Assembly (NCBI GenBank): GCA_016200005.1
Contig: JACQFP010000006.1
Location: 216,929-280,928, forward strand
Reading direction: 5' to 3'
Source: Verrucomicrobiota bacterium
GTDB taxonomy: Bacteria; Verrucomicrobiota; Verrucomicrobiia; Limisphaerales; PALSA-1396
DNA length: 64,000 nt
A model generated the notes under the pieces. That model had not been told where the DNA came from and made no database searches. It saw nothing but the letters and a program-made list of their open reading frames with translations. The position numbers and the translations under genes are program-made. This document shows, one piece after another, positions 34,374 through 54,702 of the stretch (within the stretch, counting starts at the first letter, position 1; every line of letters begins with the position of its first letter).

Positions 34374-36716
34374 TTACAAAGGGAGAGACGCTGATGAAAT
34401 CGCGTTCCATACTTTTTCCGGCGTCAGCGGCAGATCGAGATGCCGGACGCCGAGCGGCGAAAGCGCGTCGATGACGGCGTTGGCAATCGCCGGAGTCGCG
34501 CCGATGGTGCCAGCTTCGCCCACGCCTTTGATGCCCATCGGATTGCTCGGCGACGGCGTGACGGTGCTGCCCATCAGGTATTCCGGGATGTCGCGGGCGC
34601 GCGGCATGGCGTAGTCCATGAATTCGCCGGTGAGTAACTGGCCATTCTCGTCATAGACCGTGCGCTCGAACAAAACCTGGCCCAGCGAATGAGCAATACC
34701 GCCCTGCACCTGCCCTTCAACCAGCAATGGATTCACCTGCGGGCCGCAATCGTCCACCGTCACGTACTTCACAATCTTCACCTCACCGGTGTCGCGTTCC
34801 ACTTCAACAGCGACAATGTGCGTGCCAAAAGGAAAAGTGCAATTTGGCGGCTCGAAGAAACTGGATGCTTCAAGGCCAGGCTCGAAATTTTTCGGCAGAT
34901 TTTTCGCAACGTAAGCTTCAGCCGCCAGTTGCGCCCACGTCAGCGCTTTCTTGGGTCTGCCCTTCACAAAGAATTTCCCGTCGCGAAATTCAACTCGTTT
35001 CGCTGAAGCACCGAGCAGATGCGCAGCAAGAATTTTCGCCTTGGCGATGATCTTGTCGATGCACATGACGATGGCCGTCCCGCCCACGACCGTTGCGCGG
35101 CTGCCGTAAGTGTCGCGACCATAATGAGCCACAGCCGTGTCGCCACGCATGACGACGACGTCTTCGATGAGCACGCCGAGTTTGTCCGCGGCGATTTGAG
35201 CGAAGCTGGTTTCCTGTCCCTGTCCGTGCGGCGAGACGCCCGTGATGACGGTGACCTTGCCGGAAATCTCCATGCGCACGCAGCCCCATTCCCAACCGCC
35301 CGCGGCCATCATCTTCGACGGTCCGAGCGCGCAGATTTCGACATACGTGGAAAGGCCGACGCCAAAAAGTTTGCCGGCTTTGCGCGCCGTCTCGCGTTGC
35401 TTGAGCAGCTTGTCCCAGTTGGCCATCTTCTGCGCCTTCCGCAGCGCGCCCTGGTAATTGCCGCTGTCGTAGGTCAGACCGGTGGCGGTGTTGAAAGGAA
35501 ACTCGCTTGGCTTCGGAAAATTCTTCAGCCGCACCTTCACGGGGTCGAGACCAAGTTCATCGGCGATGATGTCCATGAGCCGTTCGACGAGGTAGGTCGC
35601 CTCCGGTCGGCCCGCGCCGCGATACGCGTCGGTGGCCATCTTGTGCGTGTAAACCCCGGTCACATCCATGCGCGCCGCCTTGAGTTTGTAACAACCGGCG
35701 AGCATCAGACCCGTCAACGTCGGAATGGCGGGCGTCAGCAGTTGCAAATACGAGCCGAGGTCGGCGATGGTGCGGGCTTTGATGGCGAGCAAGGTGCCAT
35801 CTTTTTTCACCGCCACTTCGTAATCGCCAATCTGGTCGCGGCCATGAATCGTGGCCGAGGCGTTTTCGCGGCGGCTTTCAATCCACTTGATCGGCGCACG
35901 GAGTCTCATGGCGAGGTGCGAGCAAAGCGCTTCTTCGGCGTATAGGTTTAGTTTCGAGCCAAACCCGCCGCCCACTTCTGGTGCAACGATGCGGATTTTA
36001 TTTTCCGCCACACCGATCATGCCGGGCAAGAGCGTGCGCACCAGATGCGGAATCTGCGTGGAAGTCCAGAGCGTGAGCGTGCCTTCGCCGGCGTGAAATG
36101 ACGCAACGCAGCCGCGCGGCTCGATGGCCATCGGCGTGAGCCGCTGATGAACCATCCGCTGTTTGATGACGCGATCGGCCTGCTTGAACGCGGCGTCAAG
36201 ATCGCCATTGGCCAGCGACCAGGTAAAGGCGACGTTGTTGCCGAATTCCGGATGCGTGAGCGGCGAATCTTTCGCGAGTGCTTTTTCGGGATCGCTGACC
36301 ACCGGCAACGGATCGTAGTCAACGTCGATCAAATCCAGCGCGTCGCAGGCCGCGTAACGATCGGCCGCGATCACCACGGCCACCGGATGTCCGACGAAAT
36401 AAACGCGGTCGCCAGCCAGCACGGTGTGTTTCGGCGCTTTCAAGTCAGGAAACGTGGAAGAGCACGGCACGACACCGCATTTGTCATTCACGTCGGCACC
36501 AGTGAATACGCCAACGACACCTGGGAGGGCTTTCGCGCCATCGGTCTTGATCCGGTTGATCATGGCGTGGGCGTACGGGCTGCGCAGAATGGCGGCGTGC
36601 AGCAGGCCTGACATTTTGAGGTCGTCCACATAGGTGGCGATGCCCTTGATGAGGCGCGGGTCTTCGACACGCTTCATCGCGCGACCGAAGTAGCCGTTGG
36701 ATTTCGCCGCTTTCAT
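34374..36716 (-). CDS. molybdopterin-binding large subunit (form II CoxL-like / xanthine dehydrogenase family)
   Basis: Start at ATG 36716 (MKAAKSNGYFGRAMKRVEDPRLIKG). Active-site loop AYRGAGR (form II type, not the AYxCSFR of bona fide CO dehydrogenases). Confidence 0.85.
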   Translation of the reverse strand: MKAAKSNGYFGRAMKRVEDPRLIKGIATYVDDLKMSGLLHAAILRSPYAHAMINRIKTDGAKALPGVVGVFTGADVNDKCGVVPCSSTFPDLKAPKHTVLAGDRVYFVGHPVAVVIAADRYAACDALDLIDVDYDPLPVVSDPEKALAKDSPLTHPEFGNNVAFTWSLANGDLDAAFKQADRVIKQRMVHQRLTPMAIEPRGCVASFHAGEGTLTLWTSTQIPHLVRTLLPGMIGVAENKIRIVAPEVGGGFGSKLNLYAEEALCSHLAMRLRAPIKWIESRRENASATIHGRDQIGDYEVAVKKDGTLLAIKARTIADLGSYLQLLTPAIPTLTGLMLAGCYKLKAARMDVTGVYTHKMATDAYRGAGRPEATYLVERLMDIIADELGLDPVKVRLKNFPKPSEFPFNTATGLTYDSGNYQGALRKAQKMANWDKLLKQRETARKAGKLFGVGLSTYVEICALGPSKMMAAGGWEWGCVRMEISGKVTVITGVSPHGQGQETSFAQIAADKLGVLIEDVVVMRGDTAVAHYGRDTYGSRATVVGGTAIVMCIDKIIAKAKILAAHLLGASAKRVEFRDGKFFVKGRPKKALTWAQLAAEAYVAKNLPKNFEPGLEASSFFEPPNCTFPFGTHIVAVEVERDTGEVKIVKYVTVDDCGPQVNPLLVEGQVQGGIAHSLGQVLFERTVYDENGQLLTGEFMDYAMPRARDIPEYLMGSTVTPSPSNPMGIKGVGEAGTIGATPAIANAVIDALSPLGVRHLDLPLTPEKVWNAISSASLPL

Positions 36717-37261
36717 GGTGGCGGGTGATTGGTGATCGGTGATGGGGGGTCGGTGATCGGTGACTCGGCGAGCAACGCGTCGGAACACGACAGGTCATCG
36801 TCGTTCACGCGGTAAGGGACAGAGTCTTCCCGCAAACCGAGGTTTGCGCCGGTTTTGCTTTCGCGCAGATAGCGGATATAGCCGTTAATCAGACGCAACA
36901 CGCTGGCCGCTTCCGCTTTGAGTCCTGCAACCTCGGCCGGGGTCAGATAGCCCTCGTCCTCGCAAGTGTTGAGGTCGTCAACAAGTTCCGACACCGAGCC
37001 TCTGGCGATCAGCACGAAACGGATATTGTCCGCGTAATGATACCGGCCATGCCCTTCAGCAACGTTATTGGTGACGGACAACGCGGCCTTGCGCATTTGC
37101 GGATTCAACACAAACTTCTCCGTGTCCAGCAACGACTTCGCGACACGGTACATCTTCTTTCGAAACTCTCGTGCCGTCCGATAAAGTTCCAAATCTTCAA
37201 ATGAGCCGTATCTTGTCGTTGTCTGTTCCATAACCATTTCAGTGTGTCGTAGGTTCACCAA
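36713..37261 (-). CDS. four-helix-bundle protein (23S rRNA intervening-sequence protein family)
   Basis: FEDLELYRTAREFRKKMYRV...QMRKAALSVTNNVAEGHGRYHYADNIRFVLIARGSVSELVDDL. Its C-terminal tail is encoded by GATCGGTGA-type repeats, and its stop overlaps the coxL-like ATG (ATGA). Confidence 0.8.
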   Translation of the reverse strand: MVNLRHTEMVMEQTTTRYGSFEDLELYRTAREFRKKMYRVAKSLLDTEKFVLNPQMRKAALSVTNNVAEGHGRYHYADNIRFVLIARGSVSELVDDLNTCEDEGYLTPAEVAGLKAEAASVLRLINGYIRYLRESKTGANLGLREDSVPYRVNDDDLSCSDALLAESPITDPPSPITNHPPP

Positions 37262-37918: not shown

Positions 37919-37994
<76 letters not shown>

Positions 37995-38145: not shown

Positions 38146-40281
38146 ATGATTTGGATCGCCCCATCCGAAAAGGACACCGACAACGCCGCACTCGAAAAAC
38201 GCCTCTGGGACGCCGCTGACCAGTTCCGCGCCAACTCCGGCCTCAAGTCCCAGGAATACTCCGCGCCCGTCCTCGGCCTCATCTTCCTGCGCTTCGCCGA
38301 GGTTCGCTTCGCTGCCCAGCGCGCCAAGCTGGAGAAAGCCAGCGCCTCCGCCCGCCGTGGATCACGGCTGGATGAACCCGCCGCCTATCACGCCGAGGGC
38401 ATCCTCTATCTGCCCGCCGAAGCGCGGTTCGATTACCTGCTCAACCGCCCCGAAGCCGAGAACATCGGCGCGAAGGTCAATGCCGCCATGCGCGACATCG
38501 AGAAGCACAACCCGCAACTCGCTGGCGTCCTGCCCAAGACCTACAACCTCTTCACCAGCACCCTGCTCAAGGAACTACTCAAGAAAGTCTCCGAGATTCC
38601 CGCCTCGCTGGACTACGACGCCTTCGGGCGCATCTACGAATACTTCCTCGGCGAGTTCGCCATGAGCGAGGGTCAGGGCGGCGGCGAATTTTACACCCCC
38701 AGCAGCATCGTCCGCCTCCTCACCGAAGTGATTGAACCCTATCACGGGCGCATCCTCGACCCCGCGTGCGGTTCGGGCGGCATGTTCGTCTCCTCCGCGC
38801 GCTTCGTCTCCGAGCACAAGCGGCAAGCTGCCGCTGGCAAATCTTCTCCCTCGCCCCTCGGAGGGGAGAGGGCCGGGGTGAGGGGTGAAAACTATTCCGG
38901 TGATCCATCCAAAGAACTCTCCATCCACGGCGTCGAGAAAACCGACGAAACCGGCCGCCTCTGCCGCCTGAACCTCGCCGTCCACGGCCTCGAAGGCGAA
39001 ATCAAACACGGCGGCAACATCAACAGCTACTACGACGACCCGCACGACGCCACCGGCCGCTTCGACTTCGTCCTCGCCAACCCGCCGTTCAACGTCAACG
39101 CCGTGGACAAGGAGCGGTTGAAAGACATGGTCGGCCCAGGCCGCCGCTTCCCCTTCGGCCTGCCGCGCACTGACAACGCCAATTACCTCTGGATTCAACT
39201 CTTCTATTCTTCGTTGAAGAATGGGGAGGCCGGAACTTCCGGCGGGCGGGCCGGCTTCGTCATGGCCAACTCCGCCTCCGACGCCCGCTCCTCCGAACAG
39301 GAACTCCGCCGCCAGCTCATCGAAAGCCGCGCCGTGGACGTGATGGTCGCCGTCGGCCCGAACCTCTTCTACACCGTCACGCTCCCCTGCACCCTCTGGT
39401 TCTTCGACAAGGGCAAGGGCAAAAGTGGGCGCACCGACTCGGTGCTGTTCATTGATGCCCGCCACATCTACCGGCAGGTGGACCGCGCGCACCGCGAATG
39501 GACGCCCGCGCAGATTGGCTTCCTCGCCAACCTCGTCCGCCTCTATCGCGGCGAAGCCCTCGACTTCACATTGGGTGGCGAAGAAGCGAAGGCCAAAATC
39601 CTTGAAGTGTTCGCCACCCAACCCTCACCCCATCCCTCTCCCAACGGGAGAGGGGGCTACAAGTTTGCCGGATTGGTCGAACGTGGTCGGGAATTGCGAA
39701 AGAAGCAGACGCCAGCCGAGGCGGTCCTGTGGGAAGTGTTGCGTGACCGGCAGTTTGAAAATCTGAAATTCCGGCGGCAACATCAGGCGGGCGATTACCT
39801 CGTGGATTTCTTCTGCCACGAACACAGCCTCGTCGTGGAGGCTGACGGCGACGTTCACGATGCTGGCTATCAGAAGAAGCACGACAAGAAGCGCGATGCA
39901 TGGCTGCGAGGACAGGGGTTCACGGTCCTGCGTTTTCGCAACGAGGACATCTTGAACGATCTTGAATCGGTGCTCGGGAAAATCGCCGCCGCTCTCCCTT
40001 CTCCCGCTGGGAGAAGGGCCGGGGATGAGGGTGACTGCAAGGTCGCGTATCGCGATGTTGCAGGCTTATGCCGCGCCGCCACGCTCAAGGAAATCGAAGC
40101 GCAAGGCTGGTCGCTCAACCCCGGCCGCTACGTCGGCGTGGCCGCCGGCGAAGCCGTGAGCGACGAGGACTTCAAGGAACAACTCGAAACGCTGAACGAG
40201 GAACTCGAAACCCTCAACGCCCAAGCGCGCGACCTCGAACAAACCATCGCCGGCAACGTGGCGGAGATTCTGGAGGCGTGA
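38146..40281 (+). CDS. hsdM: Type I restriction-modification methyltransferase subunit HsdM, carrying two in-frame insertions
   Basis: HsdM_N ([13 protein letters not shown]), AdoMet motif [11 protein letters not shown], catalytic ANPPFN, C-terminal [25 protein letters not shown]. At 711 aa it is longer than I expect for HsdM. Inserts at 38844-38887 and 39622-40031. Confidence 0.9.
38844..38887. repeat. family A ([11 protein letters not shown]) hairpin element inserted in-frame in hsdM
   Basis: TTCTCCCTCGCCCCTCGGAGGGGAGAGGGCCGGGGTGAGGGGTG, with inner stem CCCTCGCCCCTC/GAGGGGAGAGGG plus the right outer arm GGGGTGAGGGG. Translated as [16 protein letters not shown] between motif I and the rest of the methylase core. 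Confidence 0.75.
39622..40031 (+). mobile_element. inverted-repeat-bounded DUF559 (Vsr-like endonuclease domain) cassette inserted in-frame in hsdM
   Basis: Left end CCCTCACCCCATCCCTCTCCC (39622-39642), right end GGGAGAAGGGCCGGGGATGAGGG (40009-40031), imperfectly inverted. The interior encodes [58 protein letters not shown]...[17 protein letters not shown]. Boundaries are +/- a few nt. Confidence 0.7.
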
Positions 40282-41512: not shown

Positions 41513-41516
<4 letters not shown>

Positions 41517-44062
41517 ATCCGAAATCCAGTCCGCTTGGTTCAATCTGGCGAAAGTGGGATTTGCACTTTCACACGCCGGCTTCTTACGACTACGGTCACA
41601 AAGGCGCGACCAACCAGGAAATCGTTGACGGGCTACTCAAGGCCGGCATTGAGGTCGTTGCCATCACCGACCATCACCGAATCGACACGGCACGAGTCTT
41701 AGAACTTCAGAAGCTGGGAGGCGAAGACCTTACGGTGCTGCCAGGGATCGAGTTGAGGTCAGAGTTGGGCGGCAGCGACTCGGTTCACTTCATCGGCATC
41801 TTTCCTGAAGACTCCGATCTAGTGGACCTGTGGACGAAGTTGTCCGGCAAGCTCAATATCACTGAAGCAGAGGTGGCCAAGCGCGGAGACGACACGATCT
41901 ATTGTCCGTTCGTCGAAACGGCAAATGTGATACACGAACTAGGCGGCTTGGTGACCGTGCATGCTGGAAAGAAATCGAATTCTATTGAGGGCCTCAAGAA
42001 CACCGACTACATCAAACAGATTATCAAAAAGGATTTGGTCAGGGAGTGCATTGACATCTACGAGGTCGGCGATGCCACCGACATCCAAAGTTACCTTGAA
42101 AAGGTGTTCCCGCACCTTGACCGGCCAATCCCGCTGATTCTGTGCTCGGACAATCATGACATTCGGGGCTATTCGACGAAGTGCCCGCTTTGGATTAAGG
42201 GAGACAAGTCATTCGAGGCGCTGCGACAAACACTTTTTGAGCCGTCGTGTCGCGTTGGTGTTACACCGGATAAACCGCTGAAGCCGCTGTTGCGGGTGGA
42301 CCGCGTCACCTTGGATTTTCCTGCTGAAACCGAGCTGGTTTCGGAGTTTAACGGGGAAGAACGTCGCGACGCATTCTGCTTCAGAGGAAAGGCTGCGGTG
42401 GTTTTTAGTCCGTATCTCACTTGTTTGATCGGGGGAAGAGGTTCAGGCAAGAGCACTCTGCTAAATCTGATTCATGAGAAACTTGAGCGGGGACAGAACA
42501 AGTTTTTCGCTGCAAATCATCTTGCCCCACAGCCAGACGCTTCAGTCGCCACCTGTGTTCAGATTGACGGTGACACCGCAAAGAAGGTTGTCGAGTTCTT
42601 GCAGCAAAACGAAATCGAGGGCTTCGCCACCGACCCCTGGCGTTTCACGGAAGCCGTCTTTTCTAGGCTCGTGAAGCGGGACGAGGAGGGCAAACTCAAC
42701 GCGGTTAACGCTGAGTTGGCCGCCGCGTTATCCGCAACGGCTGAACAGGCGAAGCGATTACAGGAGCACACCGATTTGGTGTCACGGCTCGCAGATGCGG
42801 AGAAGGAATTAGTATCCAAGAAGGCGTTGATTGCCTCGTTCCAGAACGAAGAATACAAACGCATCAACGACGAGATGGGTAAGTTAAGCCAAGAACTCCA
42901 AGGCTTGCGAATCTGGAGGGAACGGCTTGAAGCGCTGAAGAACGACCTCAACAATTTGCCGGAACATCACAGCCATCCGATATCCGAGAACCCTAACGGC
43001 TACGAAAAAGAATTTCTGCGAATACTTGGTGTCGTCCAAGGCGCTGTGCAGCCACCTCAACCAAGTGCGGAGATGGCTGCGGCTGCCAGTCGAGAGGCTG
43101 ACTTAAACGGCCAAGTTGCCGCACTGAAAGAAAAACTCGACGCATTCCTCAGAGGGCGAGGGCTTTCGCAGGAGAATCTTGCCGATGTGGGAAAGGCAAA
43201 TCAAAGAGCTGCGCAACTGGAGCATGAGCTGCCCTCACTCAAGGCAAGAACCCAAACACTCGCCGCGCAAATCTCGGCCTTCCGGGCGCGGCGAGACTTG
43301 CCAGAAAAATACTCTGGCGCGGTCCAAGCGCTCCTCGCTCCGATTAACAATGCACTCAGGAATCTGAGCAAAGAAGTTAAACAAATCGAGTTGCACTATG
43401 AATTTGATTACGGCGCGTGTCGCCAGACGCTGATTGAACACATTCAGGATGTGTTGGGCGATGCAGGCGTCCGGATTGACCACGTCGAAAGCATGTTGCA
43501 GGACGTTGACCTGTTCCGTTTGGACAGCCGAGAAAAGTTCCTTCAAAGAATCTCGGACGCACACAAAACCGGTAAGGCCATCCGCGAGTGCTACTCGATT
43601 CCGCTGCGGTTCGACCTTCTGCGCATCGAAGTTGAACGGCAGTTGCTCGAAGTTGGAGGCTTTGGCCGTTTCCGAGTGCTTTATGACAAGAAGCCAGTCG
43701 AAAACACATCGTTCGGCCAGCGATGCACCGCGGCCATCGTCGTGCTGTTGATACTAGGGAATACACCAATCGTGATCGACGAGCCAGAAGCGCACTTGGA
43801 CAGCGCGCTCATTGCGAATTACCTGGTCGAGCTCGTGAAGAGCAAGAAGGTCAACCGCCAGATTATTTTCGCGACCCACAATGCAAACTTCGTGGTCAAC
43901 GGTGACGCCGAGCTGATCCACATTTTGGAGATGGGGGACGACAAGCAATCCAAAATCGTGAGCACAACTATCGAAGACCTGTCCCACCGCTCCGAGTTGC
44001 TTCGCCTCGAAGGTGGGCCAGAAGCTTTCTTGAAGCGCGAACACCGTTACGGCATCGCATAG
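41513..44062 (+). CDS. PHP-domain phosphoesterase fused to a Rad50/SMC-like ABC ATPase with coiled-coil insert (candidate R-M-embedded defence effector)
   Basis: PHP ligand motifs DLHFHT, ITDHH, GIE, VHAG, SDNHD in aa 1-250. Walker A GGRGSGKST (aa 307-315), ~230 aa of helical/heptad-like sequence, SFGQR, Walker B IVIDEPEAHLD (aa 753-763), FATHN. The ATG overlaps the hsdS stop (ATGA). Confidence 0.8.
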
Positions 44063-44072
44063 AACCCAAGCC

Positions 44073-44936
44073 ATGCCCCACGCCTACACCGAAGACCAGC
44101 TTGTCGAGCAGCCCGCCATCGGGTTGTTCGCGGAGCTTGGCTGGGCCGTGGCAGTGCCACCTCCCAATGCCGGCGTGGCCGGCGAGCCGCGTGACGCCGG
44201 GTTGCTCGGGCGCGAGACGAAGGGCGAGGTGGTATTGGTGTCCCGGTTGCGCGCGGCGTTGGAGCGGCTCAATCCCGCGCTGCCGCCCGAGGCCATCACC
44301 GCCGCCGTGGACGAATTGACCCGCGACCGTTCGGCCATGAGCCTGGAGGCGGCGAATCGCGAGGTGTATCGGTTGTTGAAGGAGGGGATTCCCGTTTCCG
44401 TGCTGGATGCGGAATCGACACCTCACCCCGGCCCTCTCCCCGGTCGAGGCGGAGAGGGTGCGAGCCGCACGGGAAATCACGGTGCGCTGGGGACAGCACG
44501 CCCTACCAAGGGAGGTCAGACCAGTGTCCGGGTGCGGGTGATTGATTGGGAGCATCCGGCGAACAATGGTTTCCTGCTGGTCAGCCAGTTCAGCGTCACG
44601 GGCGCGCTCTACACCTGCCGCCCGGATTTGGTCGGCTTCGTCAACGGCCTGCCGCTGGTGGTCATCGAGCTGAAGCAGCCCGGCGTGCCAGCGCGTGCGG
44701 CGTTCGACGAGAACCTGACGCACTACAAGGCGGAAATACCGCAGCTCTTTTGGTTCAACGCGCTGCTCATCGCCTCGAACGGCACGGAGAGTTGTCAGTC
44801 ACCTGTCTTCAAGCGGCGATTCTTTGGCTCGCCAAGAAACCCGACCGGCCATCCACTGTGCCTTCTTCCACTACGCACGCCGGAATCGCGTTGCGATTTT
44901 GCAGAACTCGATGCGCGATTTCTTCCATCGTCGTGA
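44073..44936 (+). pseudogene. hsdR: truncated Type I restriction subunit HsdR (N-terminal nuclease domain only)
   Basis: MPHAYTEDQLVEQPAIGLFAELGW..., with the PD-(D/E)xK core RPDLVGFVNGLPLVVIELK. Family-like sequence stops after ...LLIASNGTES (aa 240, nt ~44792). The remaining 47 codons are antisense to arnD. No helicase motifs were seen anywhere downstream. Confidence 0.8.
44421..44464. repeat. family A hairpin element inserted in-frame in hsdR remnant
   Basis: CCTCACCCCGGCCCTCTCCCCGGTCGAGGCGGAGAGGGTGCGAG, with left outer arm, inner stem CCCTCTCC/GGAGAGGG and a degenerate right arm. Translated as PHPGPLPGRGGEGAS. Confidence 0.7.
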
Positions 44937-45726
44937 AGGTAACGCCCGTTTGCTTCGCTGCCGTCACGAGTTGTTCGAACAGTTCTGCCTTCTGCATCCC
45001 TTCAATTTCGGCGTGAATGGTCAGGACATTCGGTAACTCCGACCTGAGCAAGCCAAGATAGTGAGCGACGATGGAGTTTTCCGGGAAATCAGGACGGCCA
45101 AGCAATTCGTCCAGCGTCGGCAGCGTCGTTGGAATTTGTAACGTCCGAAAAGTTTTCCCGTTCACTTGCGGAAAGAATGGAAATGCGCCCCGGCAGTCGC
45201 TGCCGTAGAGAAGTTGCTGTTCGTCATAGACCTGAAAACTGCTGGCGTTGGCCTGCCAGCCCGCTGCGCCTGCTGCCTGCGGATGCTCGCCGAAGATGCG
45301 TTCAAACTCCGCGACGGCGCGACCGAACTCTGCGCGCGTTTCTTCCAGCGAAAGGCGATGGAGATAATCCTGCCAGCGGAAATGGTCATAACAATGAATG
45401 CCGGCAGCGAATCCATCGGCTTTGACGGCGCGCAAAACGGATTCGTTGCGTTTCCCGATCTGCGGTGCGGGCAGGAGTGTGCCGGAGAGGAGCGTGCGCC
45501 AGCCGTAAAGTTGGGTGACGCGGGTGCGGGTGACTTTTTTTAGGAAGCCCGGACGGAAGACCCGTCGAATCGCCTTGCCGGTGTTGTCCGGGCCAAGGCT
45601 AAACAGAAACGTGGCGGGCACGGAATGGCGTTTGAGGATGGCGACGAGCGCGGGAACGCCTTCGCGCGTGCCGCGGTCGGTATCGACATCGATCTTGATG
45701 ATGAGTTGAGGCGCTTCGGACTTCAT
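44809..45726 (-). CDS. arnD: polysaccharide deacetylase family, ArnD-like deformylase
   Basis: LIIKIDVDTDRGTREGVPALVAILKRHSVPATFLFSLGPDNTG. The start ATG shares one nt with the upstream stop (TGATG). Last gene of the arn-type operon. Confidence 0.8.
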   Translation of the reverse strand: MKSEAPQLIIKIDVDTDRGTREGVPALVAILKRHSVPATFLFSLGPDNTGKAIRRVFRPGFLKKVTRTRVTQLYGWRTLLSGTLLPAPQIGKRNESVLRAVKADGFAAGIHCYDHFRWQDYLHRLSLEETRAEFGRAVAEFERIFGEHPQAAGAAGWQANASSFQVYDEQQLLYGSDCRGAFPFFPQVNGKTFRTLQIPTTLPTLDELLGRPDFPENSIVAHYLGLLRSELPNVLTIHAEIEGMQKAELFEQLVTAAKQTGVTFTTMEEIAHRVLQNRNAIPACVVEEGTVDGRSGFLASQRIAA

Positions 45727-46778
45727 CAACGCGTCTGCATTTTGTTCAGCTCGTAGTTTGTATTTCGCAGATGATAGTCGAGTGTCAACTTGAGGGCGGT
45801 GCGCAGGTCGGTGGTGGGTTTCCAGCCGAGATGTTTTTCGGCTTCCTTGATGGAGGGCACGCGATGGGCGATGTCCTGGTACGCTTCGCCGTAGTATTCG
45901 CGTGAATCGACGTCAATCAGTTGAATCTTTTCCGCGTTGTCACGGTATTCCTCGTAGTCTTTCAGCAGCTCGATGATGAGTTGAGCCATCTCCTTGATTG
46001 AATAGTTCATGTAGGGATTGCCGATGTTGAAGATGCGCTGTGAGGCGGCCTGGTCTTTGTTCTCGATGATGCGCACCAGGCAATCCACGCCGTCGTCGAT
46101 GAACGTGAACGAGCGTTTCTGCTGGCCGCCATCCACCAGTTTGATCGGCAGCCCATTGATGATGTTGTGAATGAATTGTGTGACAACGCGCGAACTGCCT
46201 TCCTTCGGCTCGTTGATGTCGTCCAGCTTCGGCCCGATGAAGTTGAAGGGGCGGAACAGAGTGTAGTCGAGGTTCTCCTTGTCGCCGTAAGCGAAGATGA
46301 TGCGGTCGAGGAGTTGTTTGATGCAGGCGTAAATCCAGCGTTGCTTGGGAATCGGGCCGAGGACGAAATTGGTCGTGTATTCGTCGAACTCCTTGTCCAT
46401 CGACATGCCGTAGATTTCGGAGGTGGAGGGAAAGATCAGGCGCTTCTTGTATTTCACGCACTTGCGGATGATTTCCAGGTTCGCCTCGAAATCCAGTTCG
46501 AAAACGCGGATCGGGTCGCTCACGTAAAGTCCGGGCGTGGCGATGGCGACCAGCGGAATGACGACGTCGCATTTCTTGAGATGGTATTCGATCCATTCGC
46601 GGTTGATGGTGATGTCGCCTTCAAAGAAATGAAAACGCTCATGGCCGAGGCAATGCGTGAGTTTGTTGGTGGCCATGTCCATGCCGAAAACCTCCCAGTC
46701 TTTGGTGGTGAGAATATTCCAGGCAAGGCTGTTGCCGATGAAGCCGTTGACGCCGAGGATGAGAATTTTTTGGCTCAA
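45726..46778 (-). CDS. arnA: UDP-glucuronate decarboxylase (ArnA C-terminal dehydrogenase domain as a separate gene)
   Basis: SQKILILGVNGFIGNSL Rossmann motif, SDR body with STSEIYG...Y..aK pattern. The only plausible start is TTG at 46778, overlapping the formyltransferase stop (TTGA). The upstream part of ORF 45726..47039 is Arg/Gly-rich out-of-frame sequence. Confidence 0.75.
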   Translation of the reverse strand: MSQKILILGVNGFIGNSLAWNILTTKDWEVFGMDMATNKLTHCLGHERFHFFEGDITINREWIEYHLKKCDVVIPLVAIATPGLYVSDPIRVFELDFEANLEIIRKCVKYKKRLIFPSTSEIYGMSMDKEFDEYTTNFVLGPIPKQRWIYACIKQLLDRIIFAYGDKENLDYTLFRPFNFIGPKLDDINEPKEGSSRVVTQFIHNIINGLPIKLVDGGQQKRSFTFIDDGVDCLVRIIENKDQAASQRIFNIGNPYMNYSIKEMAQLIIELLKDYEEYRDNAEKIQLIDVDSREYYGEAYQDIAHRVPSIKEAEKHLGWKPTTDLRTALKLTLDYHLRNTNYELNKMQTR

Positions 46779-47749
46779 GATGTTTTCAAGGTTAAGGGTT
46801 TGGATTGCTCGCCGACCGCGGAAAGAACCTGGCCGACCTCGAATTGCGGCGGCGCGATCTGTTGTGCCGGTTGCTGCGGGTTCACCCATTGGCAATCGGT
46901 GATCTGCAAAATGCCGTCCCCGGTCGCAATGGCAAACGGATTGAGGCTGATGACTTGTCCGGGAACCACGTCGCCTGCGCCTCTCGAAGAGAACCCCGGC
47001 GGCTGGACCCGCCAGATCATCAGCCGCGCATCGCCGCAATCAGTGAACGCACCGGGGTAAGGCCGCGTGACGGCGCGAATCAGGTTGAAGATGTTGATTA
47101 CGGGCTGGTGCCAGTCAATCCGGCCATCCTCCGGTTTGCGCGCGCCGAAATAAGTCGCTTGAGTTTCGTCCTGTGGATGACGCGGCGCGTGGCCGGTGAG
47201 AATCGCGTTCAATTGTCGCTCCAACACCTTCAACGCCGCCGCTTGAACTTTCTTCATCACTTCAATGGCGGTTTCCTCCGGTCCGATGGCAACCGCTTCC
47301 TGATCCACTATGGCTCCGGCATCCGCGCGTTGCACCATGTGATGAAGTGTGGCGCCGATCTGGCTCTCACCGTTGAGCACGGCCCAGTTGACGGGAGCTT
47401 TGCCGCGATATTTCGGCAGCAGAGAGCCGTGCATGTTGAAAGCGCCGAGCGGTGCGAGGTTCAACAACCGCATGGGAATCATGTTCCGATAGTAGAAGGA
47501 AAAGATGACGTCGGGTCGAAGGGTCTGAAGTTGCTCTTCTGTTTCCGGCGTTTTCAAAGAATCGGGCGTGAAAACCGGAACGTCATGTTCCCGCGCCAAG
47601 CCCGCGACTGATCGAAACCAAAGATTCTCGTCCGGTTTGTCTTCGTGAGTGAACACAGCGACCACGCGCGTCTTGCGGCGCAGCAACAGCTCCAGGCATT
47701 CATAGCCCACCTCGCTGTAACCGAAAACAATGACGCGCGGCTCAGTCAT
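46775..47749 (-). CDS. arnA: UDP-4-amino-4-deoxy-L-arabinose formyltransferase (ArnA N-terminal domain as a separate gene)
   Basis: MHGSLLPKYRGKAPVNWAVLNGE and the fmt-like fold. 324 aa. Confidence 0.8.
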   Translation of the reverse strand: MTEPRVIVFGYSEVGYECLELLLRRKTRVVAVFTHEDKPDENLWFRSVAGLAREHDVPVFTPDSLKTPETEEQLQTLRPDVIFSFYYRNMIPMRLLNLAPLGAFNMHGSLLPKYRGKAPVNWAVLNGESQIGATLHHMVQRADAGAIVDQEAVAIGPEETAIEVMKKVQAAALKVLERQLNAILTGHAPRHPQDETQATYFGARKPEDGRIDWHQPVINIFNLIRAVTRPYPGAFTDCGDARLMIWRVQPPGFSSRGAGDVVPGQVISLNPFAIATGDGILQITDCQWVNPQQPAQQIAPPQFEVGQVLSAVGEQSKPLTLKTS

Positions 47750-51957: not shown

Positions 51958-52988
51958 AAGGGGTCGGTTCTTGGTATTGACAACTGTTGATGGGCGGTTC
52001 ACTCTCCCATCCATGGCGCGCAAGTTACGAGTGGAATATCCGGGGGCGATTTATCATGTGATGAATCGCGGCGACCGGCGTGAGGAGATTTTCAAGGATG
52101 ACCCGGATCGGGAGCGCTTTCTGGAAGCGCTCGGCGAGGTGTGCAAGAAGACCGGCTGGCAGGTTCATGCGTTGTGCTTGATGGAGAATCATTTTCATCT
52201 GGTGGTAGAGACGCCGCAGGGCAATTTGGTGGCGGGCATGAAATGGTTTCTGGGCACTTACACTTCGCGGTTCAATCGTCGTCACAAGTTGTTCGGGCAT
52301 CTGTTCAGCGGTCGTTACAAGGCGTTGGTGGTGGATGGCAGTGGCAGCGGGTATTTGAAGACGGTCTGTGATTACGTGCACTTGAATCCGGCGCGGGCGA
52401 AATTGTTGTCAGCGGACGAATCGTTGAGAAGTTATCGTTGGAGCAGTTGGCCGGAATACTTGAAGCGGCCCGGCAATCGCTGGCCGTGGTTGCGGGTGGA
52501 TCGCTTGCTGGGTGAGTATCGGATTCCCGAGGACAACGCGGCGGGGCGGCGGCACTTGGAACAGGAACTGGAAGCGCGGCGCCAGGCGGAATCGGGAGCG
52601 GATTACAGAGCGATTCGACGGGGCTGGTGTCTGGGTGAGAAAGCCTTTCGCGAGGGATTGCTGGAGCAAATGAGCGAGCGCTTGGGCGCGGAGCACTACG
52701 GAGAGGAGCGGTTGGAGACGGGGACGGAGAAGGCGGAACGGATTATCCGCGAGGAATTGAAACAACGGCGCTGGAAGGAACGAGATCTGGCGAAGCGGGC
52801 CAAGGGTGATGTTGAGAAGGTAAAACTGGCCGGACGATTGCGTGAAGAAACGACGGTGACGGTGAAGTGGATTGCGGAGCGGCTTGAGATGGGGACGGCG
52901 GGTTACGTGAACAACCGGCTGTATCGCTGGCGCAAAGGAACGTTGCCTAAGTGAGCATGGAGTGACTGATACCAAGAACCGACCCCTT
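51958..52988 (+). mobile_element. REP-flanked RAYT unit (IS200/IS605-like Y1 transposase bounded by a perfect 20-bp inverted repeat)
   Basis: AAGGGGTCGGTTCTTGGTAT at 51958-51977 and its exact reverse complement at 52969-52988. An extra partial direct copy AGTAAAGGGGTCGGTTCT lies at 51905-51922. Confidence 0.8.
52013..52954 (+). CDS. REP-associated tyrosine transposase (RAYT, Y1_Tnp/IS200-like) with charged C-terminal extension
   Basis: YPGAIYHVMNRG, LCLMENHFHLVVETP (HuH motif), FSGRYKALVV (catalytic Tyr context). Start at ATG 52013. Confidence 0.85.
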   Translation: MARKLRVEYPGAIYHVMNRGDRREEIFKDDPDRERFLEALGEVCKKTGWQVHALCLMENHFHLVVETPQGNLVAGMKWFLGTYTSRFNRRHKLFGHLFSGRYKALVVDGSGSGYLKTVCDYVHLNPARAKLLSADESLRSYRWSSWPEYLKRPGNRWPWLRVDRLLGEYRIPEDNAAGRRHLEQELEARRQAESGADYRAIRRGWCLGEKAFREGLLEQMSERLGAEHYGEERLETGTEKAERIIREELKQRRWKERDLAKRAKGDVEKVKLAGRLREETTVTVKWIAERLEMGTAGYVNNRLYRWRKGTLPK

Positions 52989-53058: not shown

Positions 53059-54702
53059 TTAGCCAAGGTCTGTTCGGCTGCCGTCAACGGCATCGAGGCT
53101 TATCCGATCGAAGTCTTTCGTCGCGTGGCGTCGGAGCGCGTCCTTGACGGCTTCCGTGCCACCGGTCGTTTTTTCGGGAAGCTTCGCGCCCGCTTTGAGC
53201 AGCAACTCGACGGTCGTGGCGTAGTCTCCCGTCCGGCAATACCAGCCATGTTCCGAGCCGTGAATGGCCCATCCCAGTGGCGTGCTATGGAAGTCTGCAT
53301 CGGTCAGTTCGAGCGGCGGTTCGTAACGAAGGATCTCGCGGGTCAACTCCGCATTCCCATGAAACGCCGCCCAGTGCAGCGGCGTGGCACGATGCTGGCC
53401 GAGCGAGTCCACGGGCAGACCCGCAGTGAGCATCACGCGGACGGCGGCGAGATTGTTGTTCCGCGCAGCGTGAGCGACCTGGCGATGATAGGCGTCGGAC
53501 AAATCGGCGACGAGGTCAGGCTCTTGGGCGAGCAAGGATTTCACCGCGGTTTCGTCAACGGCCCAGCAAGCAGCAAGCAGTCTCACGTCGGCGGGACTGC
53601 GTTCCATCAATAAACGGAAGACGTCGTCGTGACCGAATTGCTTGGCGACGTCGTGCGGCGACACGTACCAACCGAGCGCCCATTGATAAATCGTTCCACC
53701 GGCCTTTTTGTTGATCATGGGAAAATATTCGTCGCTCACGCGCACGTGAATGCAGCCGGGATCGGAGTCCAGATGTTTGCGAACGAGGTCCGCGTCGCCC
53801 AGCGCTGCGGCCATGAGGATGTCGGTCTTGCAGCCGCGCTGAATCAAGTAACGCGCGATCTCCTGACGGTCGCCCACCATCCATTGTGCCGGTGTGGAAT
53901 CGTGGTCGATGTCGCGGGCGTCAATGTCTGCGCCGTGATCCAGCAACCACTTCGCGATTTCGACCGTGCTGGCAAAATGTAGCGGCGTCTGTCCATCGCC
54001 GCCTCGCGCATTCACTAGCGACGGATTGGCCGAGATGAGTTCACGGACCTTCTCGTTCATGCCGAGGCGTGCGGCGGCGTGCACATCCACGACGGCGCCG
54101 CGCTGTATTGCGTACGCGGCCAGGTCAGGTTTCGCGCCGTGCAAGAGCCCGAATCCGCCGGCCCACCACCGGCTCTTCGCATTGATGTCCGCCCCGGCTT
54201 CGAGCAACACGTCCAGCATCTCGCGGCTGCGCACCTGCGTGATCACCGGCGCGTCGAAGGCCGCCACGGGTTCGTTGATCTTTGCCTTCATCGCGGGAAA
54301 ACGTTCGAGTAACTGGCGGAACATGGTTGCGTCATTGTCTATAAATGCTTTCTTGAACAGTTCAACCGGGTCGTCTGCTTTGAGTGTGATGGAGTCCACA
54401 TGCTCCTTGAGCTTCATCCAACTGGCGAAACCGTATTCGCGAGCGATGACAAGTTGCGCGTCGTGAAGGCGGAAGCCTTTTCCCCTCACCCGACCTTCGG
54501 TCACCCTCTCCCCATCCGATGGGGAGAGGGATGGGGTGAGGGGCGTTCTTGGTGATTTGACCGACGAACCACCAAAGTCGGGATGAAGCTCGCGCATGCG
54601 ATTCACCGCCGCCGGCTCGCCGGCGAGATATTTTTTGAGGAGGTCTTTGGCCTGGTTCTTGAGTTGTTCAAGATTGGGCCGCGAAGGAAGCGACTTTGAC
54701 AT
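53059..54702 (-). CDS. ankyrin repeat protein
   Basis: Multiple TPLHxA/G..G...vv..LL..GAD repeats (e.g. GQTPLHFASTVEIAKWLLDHGADIDA, ATPLHWAAFHGNAELTREIL). Contains an in-frame family A repeat near the N-terminus. Confidence 0.85.
   Translation of the reverse strand: MSKSLPSRPNLEQLKNQAKDLLKKYLAGEPAAVNRMRELHPDFGGSSVKSPRTPLTPSLSPSDGERVTEGRVRGKGFRLHDAQLVIAREYGFASWMKLKEHVDSITLKADDPVELFKKAFIDNDATMFRQLLERFPAMKAKINEPVAAFDAPVITQVRSREMLDVLLEAGADINAKSRWWAGGFGLLHGAKPDLAAYAIQRGAVVDVHAAARLGMNEKVRELISANPSLVNARGGDGQTPLHFASTVEIAKWLLDHGADIDARDIDHDSTPAQWMVGDRQEIARYLIQRGCKTDILMAAALGDADLVRKHLDSDPGCIHVRVSDEYFPMINKKAGGTIYQWALGWYVSPHDVAKQFGHDDVFRLLMERSPADVRLLAACWAVDETAVKSLLAQEPDLVADLSDAYHRQVAHAARNNNLAAVRVMLTAGLPVDSLGQHRATPLHWAAFHGNAELTREILRYEPPLELTDADFHSTPLGWAIHGSEHGWYCRTGDYATTVELLLKAGAKLPEKTTGGTEAVKDALRRHATKDFDRISLDAVDGSRTDLG
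54482..54543. repeat. complete two-armed family A element inserted in-frame in the ankyrin gene
   Basis: CCCCTCACCC-gaccttcggtca-CCCTCTCCCCA-tccga-TGGGGAGAGGG-a-TGGGGTGAGGGG, with nested outer and inner inverted repeats. Translated on the minus strand as TPLTPSLSPSDGERVTEGRVRGKG. Confidence 0.8.

Follow-up and report, generated by a model that had tools for sequence, protein, structure and literature searches.

A TrlF-family PHP-ABC ATPase encoded between hsdS and a truncated hsdR in a Verrucomicrobiota restriction-modification island: a candidate defence gene

The window analysed here is a stretch of 64,000 nucleotides from a Verrucomicrobiota bacterium (assembly GCA_016200005.1, contig JACQFP010000006.1), in which a gene for an 849-residue protein lies between hsdS and hsdR of a Type I restriction-modification (R-M) operon. 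The encoded protein is a member of the TrlF family and joins in a single chain an N-terminal PHP phosphoesterase domain and a Rad50/SMC-like ABC ATPase. The catalytic residues proposed for both parts are conserved among diverse homologues, and relatives of the gene recur beside R-M and other defence genes. With a probability of about 0.5, we favour the reading that this TrlF is an autonomous, Ppl-like single-chain nuclease-ATPase that occupies the cargo slot of a mobile R-M island next to a tRNA-Phe gene. The gene is thus a good candidate for a defence gene, but its family is widespread and has a name already, and the system is not of a new kind.

Family membership, domains and conserved residues

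The NCBIfam equivalog profile NF045780 ('TrlF family AAA-like ATPase') is matched at 434.1 bits (E 1.7e-129, cut-off 350), with residues 9-847 aligned on positions 2-944 of the 944 of the profile. Since the equivalog cut-off is passed by a full-length alignment, the protein is a TrlF family member. Related NCBIfam profiles give weaker and shorter matches. The Ppl profile NF042955 reaches 134.4 bits against a cut-off of 1000, its best stretch placing residues 9-326 on profile positions 1-303 of 882, and Spaf_1101 reaches 161 bits against 475, its best stretch lying within the N-terminal ~320 residues; all that the reference on Spaf_1101 gives for this gene is a position at one edge of a conjugative transposon. 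CehA/McbA profiles match the PHP domain in part. Among the PADLOC profiles, Ppl is matched over residues 8-321 (E 2.3e-28), which bears out a kinship to which the original prediction had pointed, and mad3 over the ATPase part (aa 296-819, E 2.3e-19, on a profile of 374 positions). Two PDC-M49A profiles have matches at either end of the protein, in the N-terminal PHP part (aa 13-109, E 4.4e-8) and in the C-terminal part of the ATPase (E 6.5e-10), and weaker matches at the Walker B region were obtained with AriA, LmuB, PtuA, GajA and Old. Judged by these profiles, the protein is a relative of Ppl in a separate family, not Ppl itself. The PHROGs profiles gave generic P-loop/ABC matches only, and a phage origin is therefore not indicated.

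With Pfam, AAA_21 and AAA_15 are the only families above threshold, the PHP family itself staying below it (E 0.0095, 16.7 bits versus 26.4). The PHP assignment is based on the NCBIfam and PADLOC profiles, the conserved ligands and the fold match, not on Pfam PHP. Inspection of the sequence confirmed all the motifs that the original prediction had picked out, in the PHP domain (WDLHFHT, 15-21; ITDHH, 51-55; PGIE, 77-80; VHAG, 149-152; CSDNHD, 211-216) and in the ATPase (GGRGSGKST, 307-315; SFGQR, 733-737; IVIDEPEAHLD, 753-763; FATHN, 786-790). The full set of PHP ligands comprises D16, H18, H20, D53, H54, H55, E80, H92, H150, D213 and H215. In an alignment with 17 diverse homologues (39-63% identity), D16, H18, H20, D53, E80, D213 and H215 are invariant in the PHP domain, as are the Walker A motif with its lysine K313, Q365, S733, Q736, D756, E757 and H789 in the ATPase; the whole SFGQR signature (S733-R737) is invariant too.

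A confident AlphaFold model built with 17 homologues as input (predicted local distance difference test, pLDDT, 83.7; predicted template modelling score, pTM, 0.70) shows an alpha/beta barrel (residues 9-255), the N-terminal half of an ABC head (260-393), a coiled coil (394-617) and the C-terminal half of the head (618-849). The insert of ~220 residues consists of two helices (394-485 and 496-617) running antiparallel, in agreement with the helical region without zinc hook that had been read from the sequence at aa ~400-640: there is no CxxC in the whole protein and no cysteine between residues 349 and 635. The head is thus split by a coiled coil between the Q-loop and the signature, the arrangement that defines the Rad50/SMC-like fold class. 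When the model was compared with the PDB by Foldseek, the ATPase part matched heads with coiled coils, namely Smc (5xei, 7.5e-9), JetC, MukB, Rad50, RecN and LmuB, and the N-terminal domain matched the PHP structures 2anu (phosphoesterase TM0559) and 4gx8 (PHP domain of Pol III alpha). The combination of PHP and Rad50/SMC-like ATPase first proposed from the sequence is thus supported by NCBIfam, PADLOC, AlphaFold and Foldseek. A sequence search of solved structures returned generic ABC ATPases only; neither this search nor Foldseek revealed a structure of TrlF or Ppl.

The alignment separates two subtypes at the N-terminus. Proteins of ~850 residues, including that of the window, keep H54, H55, H92 and H150. 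A subtype of ~906 residues is without these four histidines and retains D16, H18, H20, D53, E80, D213 and H215; it is present in the census loci L005-L011, L014, L021 and others (see below for the census), and may bind fewer metal ions or carry out a different chemistry. As a separate observation, some TrlF homologues of ~1030 residues (P0063, P0064 and P0091) bear an additional N-terminal gamma-glutamylcyclotransferase/AIG2-like domain (PF13772, PF06094).

The family is large. A metagenome-scale search that scored 8,000 candidates gave at least 1,972 proteins with E <= 1e-5, and on plasmids tblastn found homologues in 462 records, 316 of them conjugative, mostly from Escherichia and Klebsiella. 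The RefSeq label 'TrlF family AAA-like ATPase' is borne by nearly all RefSeq plasmid copies among the matches listed. A Verrucomicrobia metagenome-assembled genome has yielded a protein of identical sequence. TrlF takes its name from the temperature restriction locus trlR-trlF-trlG of Photorhabdus (P. laumondii). The original prediction had known of no described mechanism for a PHP-SMC fusion in an hsd operon; this view does not hold, since the protein passes the cut-off of a named family with RefSeq-labelled homologues on plasmids, PDC-M49 has been defined, and the mechanism of Ppl was reviewed in 2026.

The host island and the neighbourhoods of relatives

The trlF gene is tightly joined to its neighbours. 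Its ATG shares the ATGA (ctATGAat) with the TGA of hsdS, which makes a 4-nt start/stop overlap, its TAG (44060-62) is followed 10 nt further on by the ATG of hsdR (44073), and hsdS itself starts (40284) 2 nt past the hsdM stop. Because of these 2-nt, overlapping and 10-nt junctions, hsdM, hsdS, trlF and the hsdR stub form a tightly packed four-gene operon of which trlF is an integral member, as had been concluded from the letters alone. The slot between hsdS and hsdR, pointed out earlier as that of PrrC, is therefore occupied by trlF. A scan for promoters and terminators gave counts not above those of shuffled sequence and was not used. The GC content at third codon positions (GC3) is 0.634 in trlF, 0.788 in hsdM, 0.723 in hsdS, 0.812 in the hsdR stub and 0.655-0.767 in the arn genes. 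The impression that trlF is richer in A/T at these positions than hsdM or the arn genes thus holds in part: these genes, and also hsdS and the hsdR stub, have higher values, but that of trlF falls inside the range of the other genes of the window (0.61-0.81). With a GC3 below its R-M partners and within this range, trlF differs in composition from its operon partners and not from the genome at large.

The island extends from the tRNA-Phe gene (37919-37994) to 44792 and contains only hsdM, hsdS, trlF and the hsdR stub. It is flanked by a xanthine-dehydrogenase-like operon on one side and by a minus-strand arnT-B-C-A-D operon on the other. A tRNA-Phe gene directly upstream is as expected for an integrated island; the 3' end of this tRNA gene is not repeated elsewhere in the window, and we found no convincing flanking repeats and no integrase. 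The hsdM and hsdS genes are both full length according to Pfam and PADLOC. The original prediction had called hsdR decayed. It is indeed incomplete, but as a clean 5' stub without frameshifts: in tblastn with six full-length HsdR proteins of related loci, homology (up to 71% identity) covers residues 1-~210 and ends at 44786-44792, with no pieces downstream, and a decay by frameshifts was rejected in favour of a clean truncation. About four fifths of hsdR are gone, and hsdM-hsdS-trlF are left. The stop of arnD (44809-44811), on the opposite strand, lies 17 nt from the end of the hsdR homology; from 44809 the minus strand carries arnD, arnA, arnC and arnB, and the frame of the hsdR stub continues antisense into arnD until 44936. 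Downstream of 44936, the plus-strand open reading frames (ORFs) have no Pfam match, and neither a helicase nor any other HsdR domain was found there. The junction of hsdR and arnD could be either a deletion or a mis-join of the metagenome assembly. Because only the first ~210 residues of HsdR remain while M and S are full length, restriction by this Type I system has been lost and methylation probably retained.

HsdM carries a DUF559 (Vsr-like endonuclease) insert with Pro/Gly-rich peptides on either side, and the HsdM tail with this domain is 41-88% identical across related R-M backbones from four phyla. The domain may be an active nuclease or a selfish insert. With it, the locus has a nuclease-like domain besides that of TrlF, and the earlier suggestion that the PHP-ATPase is the only dedicated nuclease left there is doubtful. 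A GC-rich repeat of 22 nt, GGGAGAGGGCCGGGGTGAGGGG, occurs four times in the window against 0 expected. Three copies are in frame within coding sequence, two in hsdM and one in the hsdR stub, where they encode Pro/Gly/Arg-rich peptides and fall at gaps between the stretches of HsdM and of the HsdR stub that are matched by profiles and homologues. This repeat looks like a dispersed element that enters coding sequence without breaking it. The coordinates of these features are collected in the following table.

Table. Features of the trlF gene product, of its host island and of corresponding gaps in related loci (window positions unless a locus is named)
Feature	Position	Strand	Basis and remarks
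tRNA-Phe(GAA)	37919..37994	+	ARAGORN; left island edge, 151 nt upstream of hsdM
hsdM, Type I methyltransferase, 711 aa	38146..40281	+	Pfam N6_Mtase 1.1e-68, HsdM_N 7e-22; PADLOC MTase_I 1.2e-228
DUF559 (Vsr-like endonuclease) insert in HsdM, aa 512-617	39679-39996 (about)	+	Pfam 1.7e-35; C-terminal-proximal
hsdS, specificity subunit, 410 aa	40284..41516	+	Pfam Methylase_S 5.5e-22; PADLOC Specificity_I 1.8e-71, positions 2-392 of 405
trlF-family gene, 849 aa	41513..44062	+	ORF call and NCBIfam NF045780
PHP phosphoesterase domain, aa 9-255	41537..42277	+	PADLOC/NCBIfam profiles, fold match, conservation
ABC head, N-half, aa 260-393 (beta wrap, Walker A G307-T315, Q-loop Q365)	42290..42691	+	Pfam AAA_15 and ABC_tran, model, invariant columns
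Antiparallel coiled-coil insert, aa 394-617, apex ~aa 486-495	42692..43363	+	AlphaFold helices, Foldseek
ABC head, C-half, aa 618-849 (SFGQR 733-737, Walker B 753-757, D-loop, H-loop H789)	43364..44059	+	Pfam AAA_21 2e-10, invariant columns
hsdR 5' stub	44073..44792	+	Pfam HSDR_N 8.8e-41; tblastn; ~210 homologous residues of a ~1055-aa HsdR
GGGAGAGGGCCGGGGTGAGGGG copies	38864-38885; 39621-39642; 44419-44440; 54522-54543	+; -; -; +	Repeat count
Genes in the hsdS..hsdR gap of the closest relatives	L001:6819-7916, L001:10714-11757; L081, L083		TIR, PDDEXK_4 (PDC-S26, 2.9e-84), NOV_C, Fic

Some observations concern the flanking genes. ArnA is encoded on the minus strand (45726-47749) by two genes in different frames whose stop and start abut, one for the formyltransferase (46775-47749) and one for the epimerase/dehydratase (45726-~46766). 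An IS200-like Y1 transposase ORF (51971-52954, plus strand) adjoins the start of the arn operon. On the other flank, a gene for a 23S rRNA-intervening-sequence protein of the four-helix-bundle family (36713-37261, minus strand, Pfam 4.5e-27) lies between the molybdopterin and the 2Fe-2S subunit genes of the xanthine-dehydrogenase-like operon.

The genomic neighbourhoods of relatives were surveyed by scanning one genome per GTDB species, which gave 80 loci from many phyla, 75 of them non-redundant. ORFs were called, iterated hidden Markov models (HMMs) for HsdM, HsdS and HsdR were built from the window proteins, and Pfam and PADLOC matches were counted; the sample is biased by pattern-based retrieval and by crude ORF calling. 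A clustering of neighbours by all-against-all blastp was too insensitive, recovering only R-M clusters and clusters specific to Helicobacter, and was replaced by the HMMs and the Pfam and PADLOC counts. Type I genes are found within 8 kb in ~20 of the 75 loci, hsdS being immediately upstream in ~10, while about three quarters of the loci have no Type I gene at this distance. Genomes carry on the order of one Type I system, and a random gene would be expected within 8 kb of it in well under 1% of cases; measured against this general, uncomputed expectation, the enrichment of TrlF beside Type I genes is large. Among the 46 operonic upstream neighbours, Pfam finds Methylase_S in 8, N6_Mtase in 3 and MmeI in 2, and also XhoI, HsdR and GmrSD-HNH. 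Downstream are found HsdR, PDDEXK_4 (PADLOC PDC-S26), RhuM, KAP NTPase, PLD, GIY-YIG, Type II and III methylases, PDC-S05, PDC-S20 and one TrlG-like protein with AlbA_2 and HATPase_c_4. The census thus found the enrichment of homologues beside R-M and other defence genes that had been anticipated.

The tight junction with hsdS is not restricted to the window: an overlap or a gap of <=4 nt follows hsdS in the window and in L005, L011, L018, L067, L075, L077 and L083, and likewise follows other restriction genes, namely hsdR (L066), MmeI (L053) and GmrSD-HNH (L070). In L077, trlF ends an hsdR-hsdM-hsdS-trlF operon, and in L059 an Eco57I-like methylase lies one small ORF upstream of trlF. On plasmids, the trlF copy of a KPC plasmid adjoins a type II R-M system, some copies stand alone, and some lie beside TrlG-like genes annotated 'RecG' or RNA-binding. 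The R-M backbone of the window is shared with loci of Verrucomicrobia, Planctomycetota, Gallionellaceae and Leptospirales, in which identities are 59-83% for HsdM, with its DUF559 tail, and 50-75% for HsdR, and the gene order is hsdM-hsdS-trlF-(0 to 4 genes)-hsdR in all. The closest GTDB locus (63% identity) has a TIR gene and a PDDEXK_4 gene in the gap between hsdS and hsdR as well. In precomputed annotation, a homologue at 68% identity lies in the order hsdM-hsdS-orf-TrlF-...-NOV_C-hsdR, and another at 62% in hsdM-hsdS-TrlF-NOV_C-Fic-hsdR, with the same 4-nt overlap. The gap between hsdS and hsdR is thus a site for defence cargo of several genes. A further homologue, 66% identical, stands by itself among housekeeping genes. 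In a neighbour-joining tree, R-M-embedded and free members are interleaved and no R-M-specific subclade is seen. Finally, one R-M backbone carries either of the two N-terminal TrlF subtypes, which suggests that the cassette can be exchanged.

What TrlF may do

By analogy with known machines, TrlF could work as an SbcCD/Mre11-Rad50-style machine in one polypeptide, with the metal-dependent PHP phosphoesterase as its nuclease. Two ABC heads on short coiled-coil arms would close around nucleotide and bind DNA, this nucleotide-dependent engagement would control the access of DNA, probably of free 3' ends, to the PHP exonuclease, and the PHP domain would then degrade DNA from those ends. We propose this mechanism because a gated 3'-5' exonuclease is reported for Ppl: in the sentence that a 2026 review devotes to it, Ppl is described as a 3'-5' single-stranded DNA exonuclease that is inhibited by nucleoside triphosphates bound to both of its domains and activated by nucleotide depletion together with 3'-OH ends produced by phage homing endonucleases. 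Ppl is a single-gene defence with ATPase and PHP domains in E. coli (Gao et al. 2020). TrlF would likewise be a self-sufficient effector of the defence type, presumably directed against phages, and the position after hsdS in mobile Type I islands would be a cargo slot in which defence genes gather and are co-expressed with the methylase.

Autonomy is favoured because the 66%-identical homologue stands alone, embedded and free members are interleaved in the tree, and Ppl is active as a single gene; it is favoured also because about three quarters of the loci are without a Type I gene and the 462 plasmid records include stand-alone copies. As to the cargo slot, the gap also holds TIR, PDDEXK_4, NOV_C and Fic genes, embedded genes number in the thousands in Type I R-M, BREX and DISARM systems according to Payne et al., embedding in Type I being general, and TgvAB is embedded in a Vibrio Type I operon; the GC3 of trlF, below that of its R-M partners, and the occurrence of two subtypes on one backbone argue in the same direction. 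Several points weigh against this reading. The mechanism of Ppl is taken from a single sentence of a review, and the strong similarity to Ppl profiles is confined to the N-terminal ~320 residues. The 4-nt overlap with hsdS recurs in several lineages and the family is enriched directly after several types of restriction gene, both of which fit a functional partnership as well. In addition, the Photorhabdus paper is the sole relevant item in the literature retrieved for 'TrlF', which holds no experiment on any TrlF protein; in that paper every suppressor mutation fell in trlG and none in trlF, and its authors drew no conclusion on what TrlF does there.

A functional partnership could take the form of a post-restriction helper, in which TrlF would load on double-strand ends cut by the partner restriction enzyme and destroy the foreign fragments, a built-in substitute for RecBCD-type clean-up. 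This is the sense of the tight junctions (<=4 nt) with hsdS, hsdR, MmeI and GmrSD-HNH genes, of the Eco57I-like methylase near trlF in L059, of the at least 11 of 46 operonic upstream neighbours that match Methylase_S or N6_Mtase (XhoI, HsdR and GmrSD-HNH being found too), and of the KPC plasmid copy beside a type II R-M system; a need for free 3'-OH ends, as the review sentence reports for Ppl, would also fit. We nevertheless consider such a helper unlikely, as the surrounding 8 kb are free of restriction genes in most members of the family, the 66%-identical homologue stands alone, trlF is intact in the window although its partner nuclease HsdR is truncated, and defence genes often co-locate without functional coupling. 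More broadly, TrlF proteins might be dedicated restriction partners, either as end-processing exonucleases for Type I, IIL, IIG and IV cuts or, in the most radical form, as a PHP-SMC subunit working with the HsdM2S1 methylase in a restriction arm independent of HsdR. This idea would account for hsdM-hsdS-trlF being intact after the loss of hsdR and echoes a result on MADS, whose S-subunit gene mad5 can be deleted only along with mad2 or mad3; we hold it tentatively, as a minority view.

A guard of the PrrC kind, held latent by HsdM/HsdS and unleashed when a phage anti-restriction factor disables the R-M system, whereupon it would kill the infected cell or degrade DNA, is improbable. The hsdM-hsdS-X-hsdR slot, the fusion of an ABC-type NTPase with a nuclease-like domain, the translational coupling of the trlF start to the hsdS stop and the mad5 result, together with the match of the TrlF ATPase to mad3 (E 2.3e-19), follow its logic. 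The effector is an N-terminal PHP domain, however, with no anticodon-nuclease domain, neither PrrC nor RloC is among the 25 best PADLOC matches, most of the family occurs without Type I R-M and forms no R-M-specific subclade in the tree, and the scan of ORFs around the island showed none of the mandatory MAD6-8. The original prediction, in which the methylase guards or cooperates with the effector, thus finds no direct support, given the stand-alone 66% relative and the interleaving of embedded and free members. It is more improbable still that trlF is a functionless remnant of a decaying island, or that the arnD junction is an assembly error: the truncation of hsdR at 44792, the metagenome-assembled source and the lack of an integrase or att repeat would agree with this, whereas the 2.5-kb ORF is uninterrupted with all family-invariant residues present, hsdM and hsdS are full length and the tight gene junctions are preserved. 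Least probable of all is a role outside defence, be it a growth-arrest module for stress or temperature like the Photorhabdus locus or a DNA-repair nuclease. The family is named after that locus, some plasmid copies lie beside TrlG-like genes and one sampled locus has an AlbA_2+HATPase_c_4 neighbour, but neither trlG nor trlR is found among the island genes (hsdM, hsdS, trlF and the hsdR stub), the Photorhabdus suppressors all point to trlG, and the neighbourhoods are dominated by R-M, defence-candidate and mobile-element genes.

This analysis adds that TrlF is structurally akin to Ppl, a validated defence protein, that it recurs directly after restriction genes, and that it exists in two PHP subtypes, with a full and with a reduced ligand set. 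In the searchable literature, we found no statement of a quantitative link across phyla between TrlF and the position directly after restriction genes, nor of two PHP subtypes on one R-M backbone. TrlF genes are common and occur, among other places, on conjugative KPC plasmids of Klebsiella and its relatives. Should their coupling to restriction turn out to be functional, they would provide a new accessory layer for R-M biology; otherwise they would represent a further nuclease defence of the single-gene type, with a broad range of hosts.

Comparison with known systems

As a Type I system, the host operon has full-length HsdM and HsdS and lacks a complete HsdR with nuclease, helicase-motor and C-terminal domains. 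TrlF shares with PrrC and RloC the slot between hsdS and hsdR and the association of an ABC-type NTPase with a nuclease-like domain, and with RloC a coiled coil. In PrrC and RloC the anticodon nuclease is C-terminal, whereas here the chain ends with the second half of the ABC head and the effector is the N-terminal PHP domain. Membership of PrrC, which is almost exclusively embedded in Type I R-M (Payne et al.), was rejected on the absence of an anticodon-nuclease domain and of any PrrC model among the 25 best PADLOC matches, and that of RloC on the absence of a CxxC zinc hook.

The predicted fold of head plus coiled coil matches those of SbcCD/Mre11-Rad50, of JetC from Wadjet and of LmuB from Lamassu, with the signature and the Walker B glutamate conserved, but the coiled coil of the window protein is much shorter (~90-120 residues per arm) and is without hook or hinge. 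Unlike in SbcCD/Mre11-Rad50, the nuclease is in cis and of the PHP type, not of the Mre11/SbcD calcineurin type or Toprim, and unlike in the JetC and LmuB systems no kleisin-like or other partner genes are present in the island; Lamassu was rejected, as one of its defining features does not hold here. OLD and Gabija were rejected too, there being no Pfam Toprim match and the GajA and Old profiles reaching only the Walker B region (aa 751-822). MADS likewise joins an ATPase with Type I-like M and S subunits, and its MAD3 resembles TrlF in the ATPase part only. HsdM and HsdS score 38.8 and 19.9 bits with the MADS profiles MAD2 and MAD5, against cut-offs of 720 and 400, and MADS was rejected since the mandatory MAD6, MAD7 and MAD8 were not seen in the four-gene island.

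Further comparisons concern other PHP-ATPases. PDC-M49, defined in PADLOC by 'guilt-by-embedding' from cassettes embedded in R-M, BREX and DISARM (Payne et al. 2024), is a related PHP-ATPase whose profiles match both ends of the window protein, weakly and partially; it consists of two genes, the second of which is without counterpart in the window island. The TrlF of Photorhabdus has the same architecture of PHP and ABC ATPase, and the family is widespread on plasmids and chromosomes. The Photorhabdus type locus, trlR-trlF-trlG, has a partner with AlbA_2 and HATPase_c_4 and no intact R-M operon, whereas here trlF stands with hsdM, hsdS and an hsdR stub, and the four-gene island holds no adjacent TrlG with AlbA_2 and HATPase_c_4 and no small regulator TrlR that would make it a TRL operon; according to the Photorhabdus paper, the plasmid pYR3 of Yersinia ruckeri has two hsdM fragments inside its trl locus. 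Ppl differs in that the best alignment covers about the first third of its profiles and in that it is not described as R-M-embedded. It is the same kind of single polypeptide with PHP and ABC-type ATPase, and its PHP domain and Walker A region are homologous to those of the window protein.

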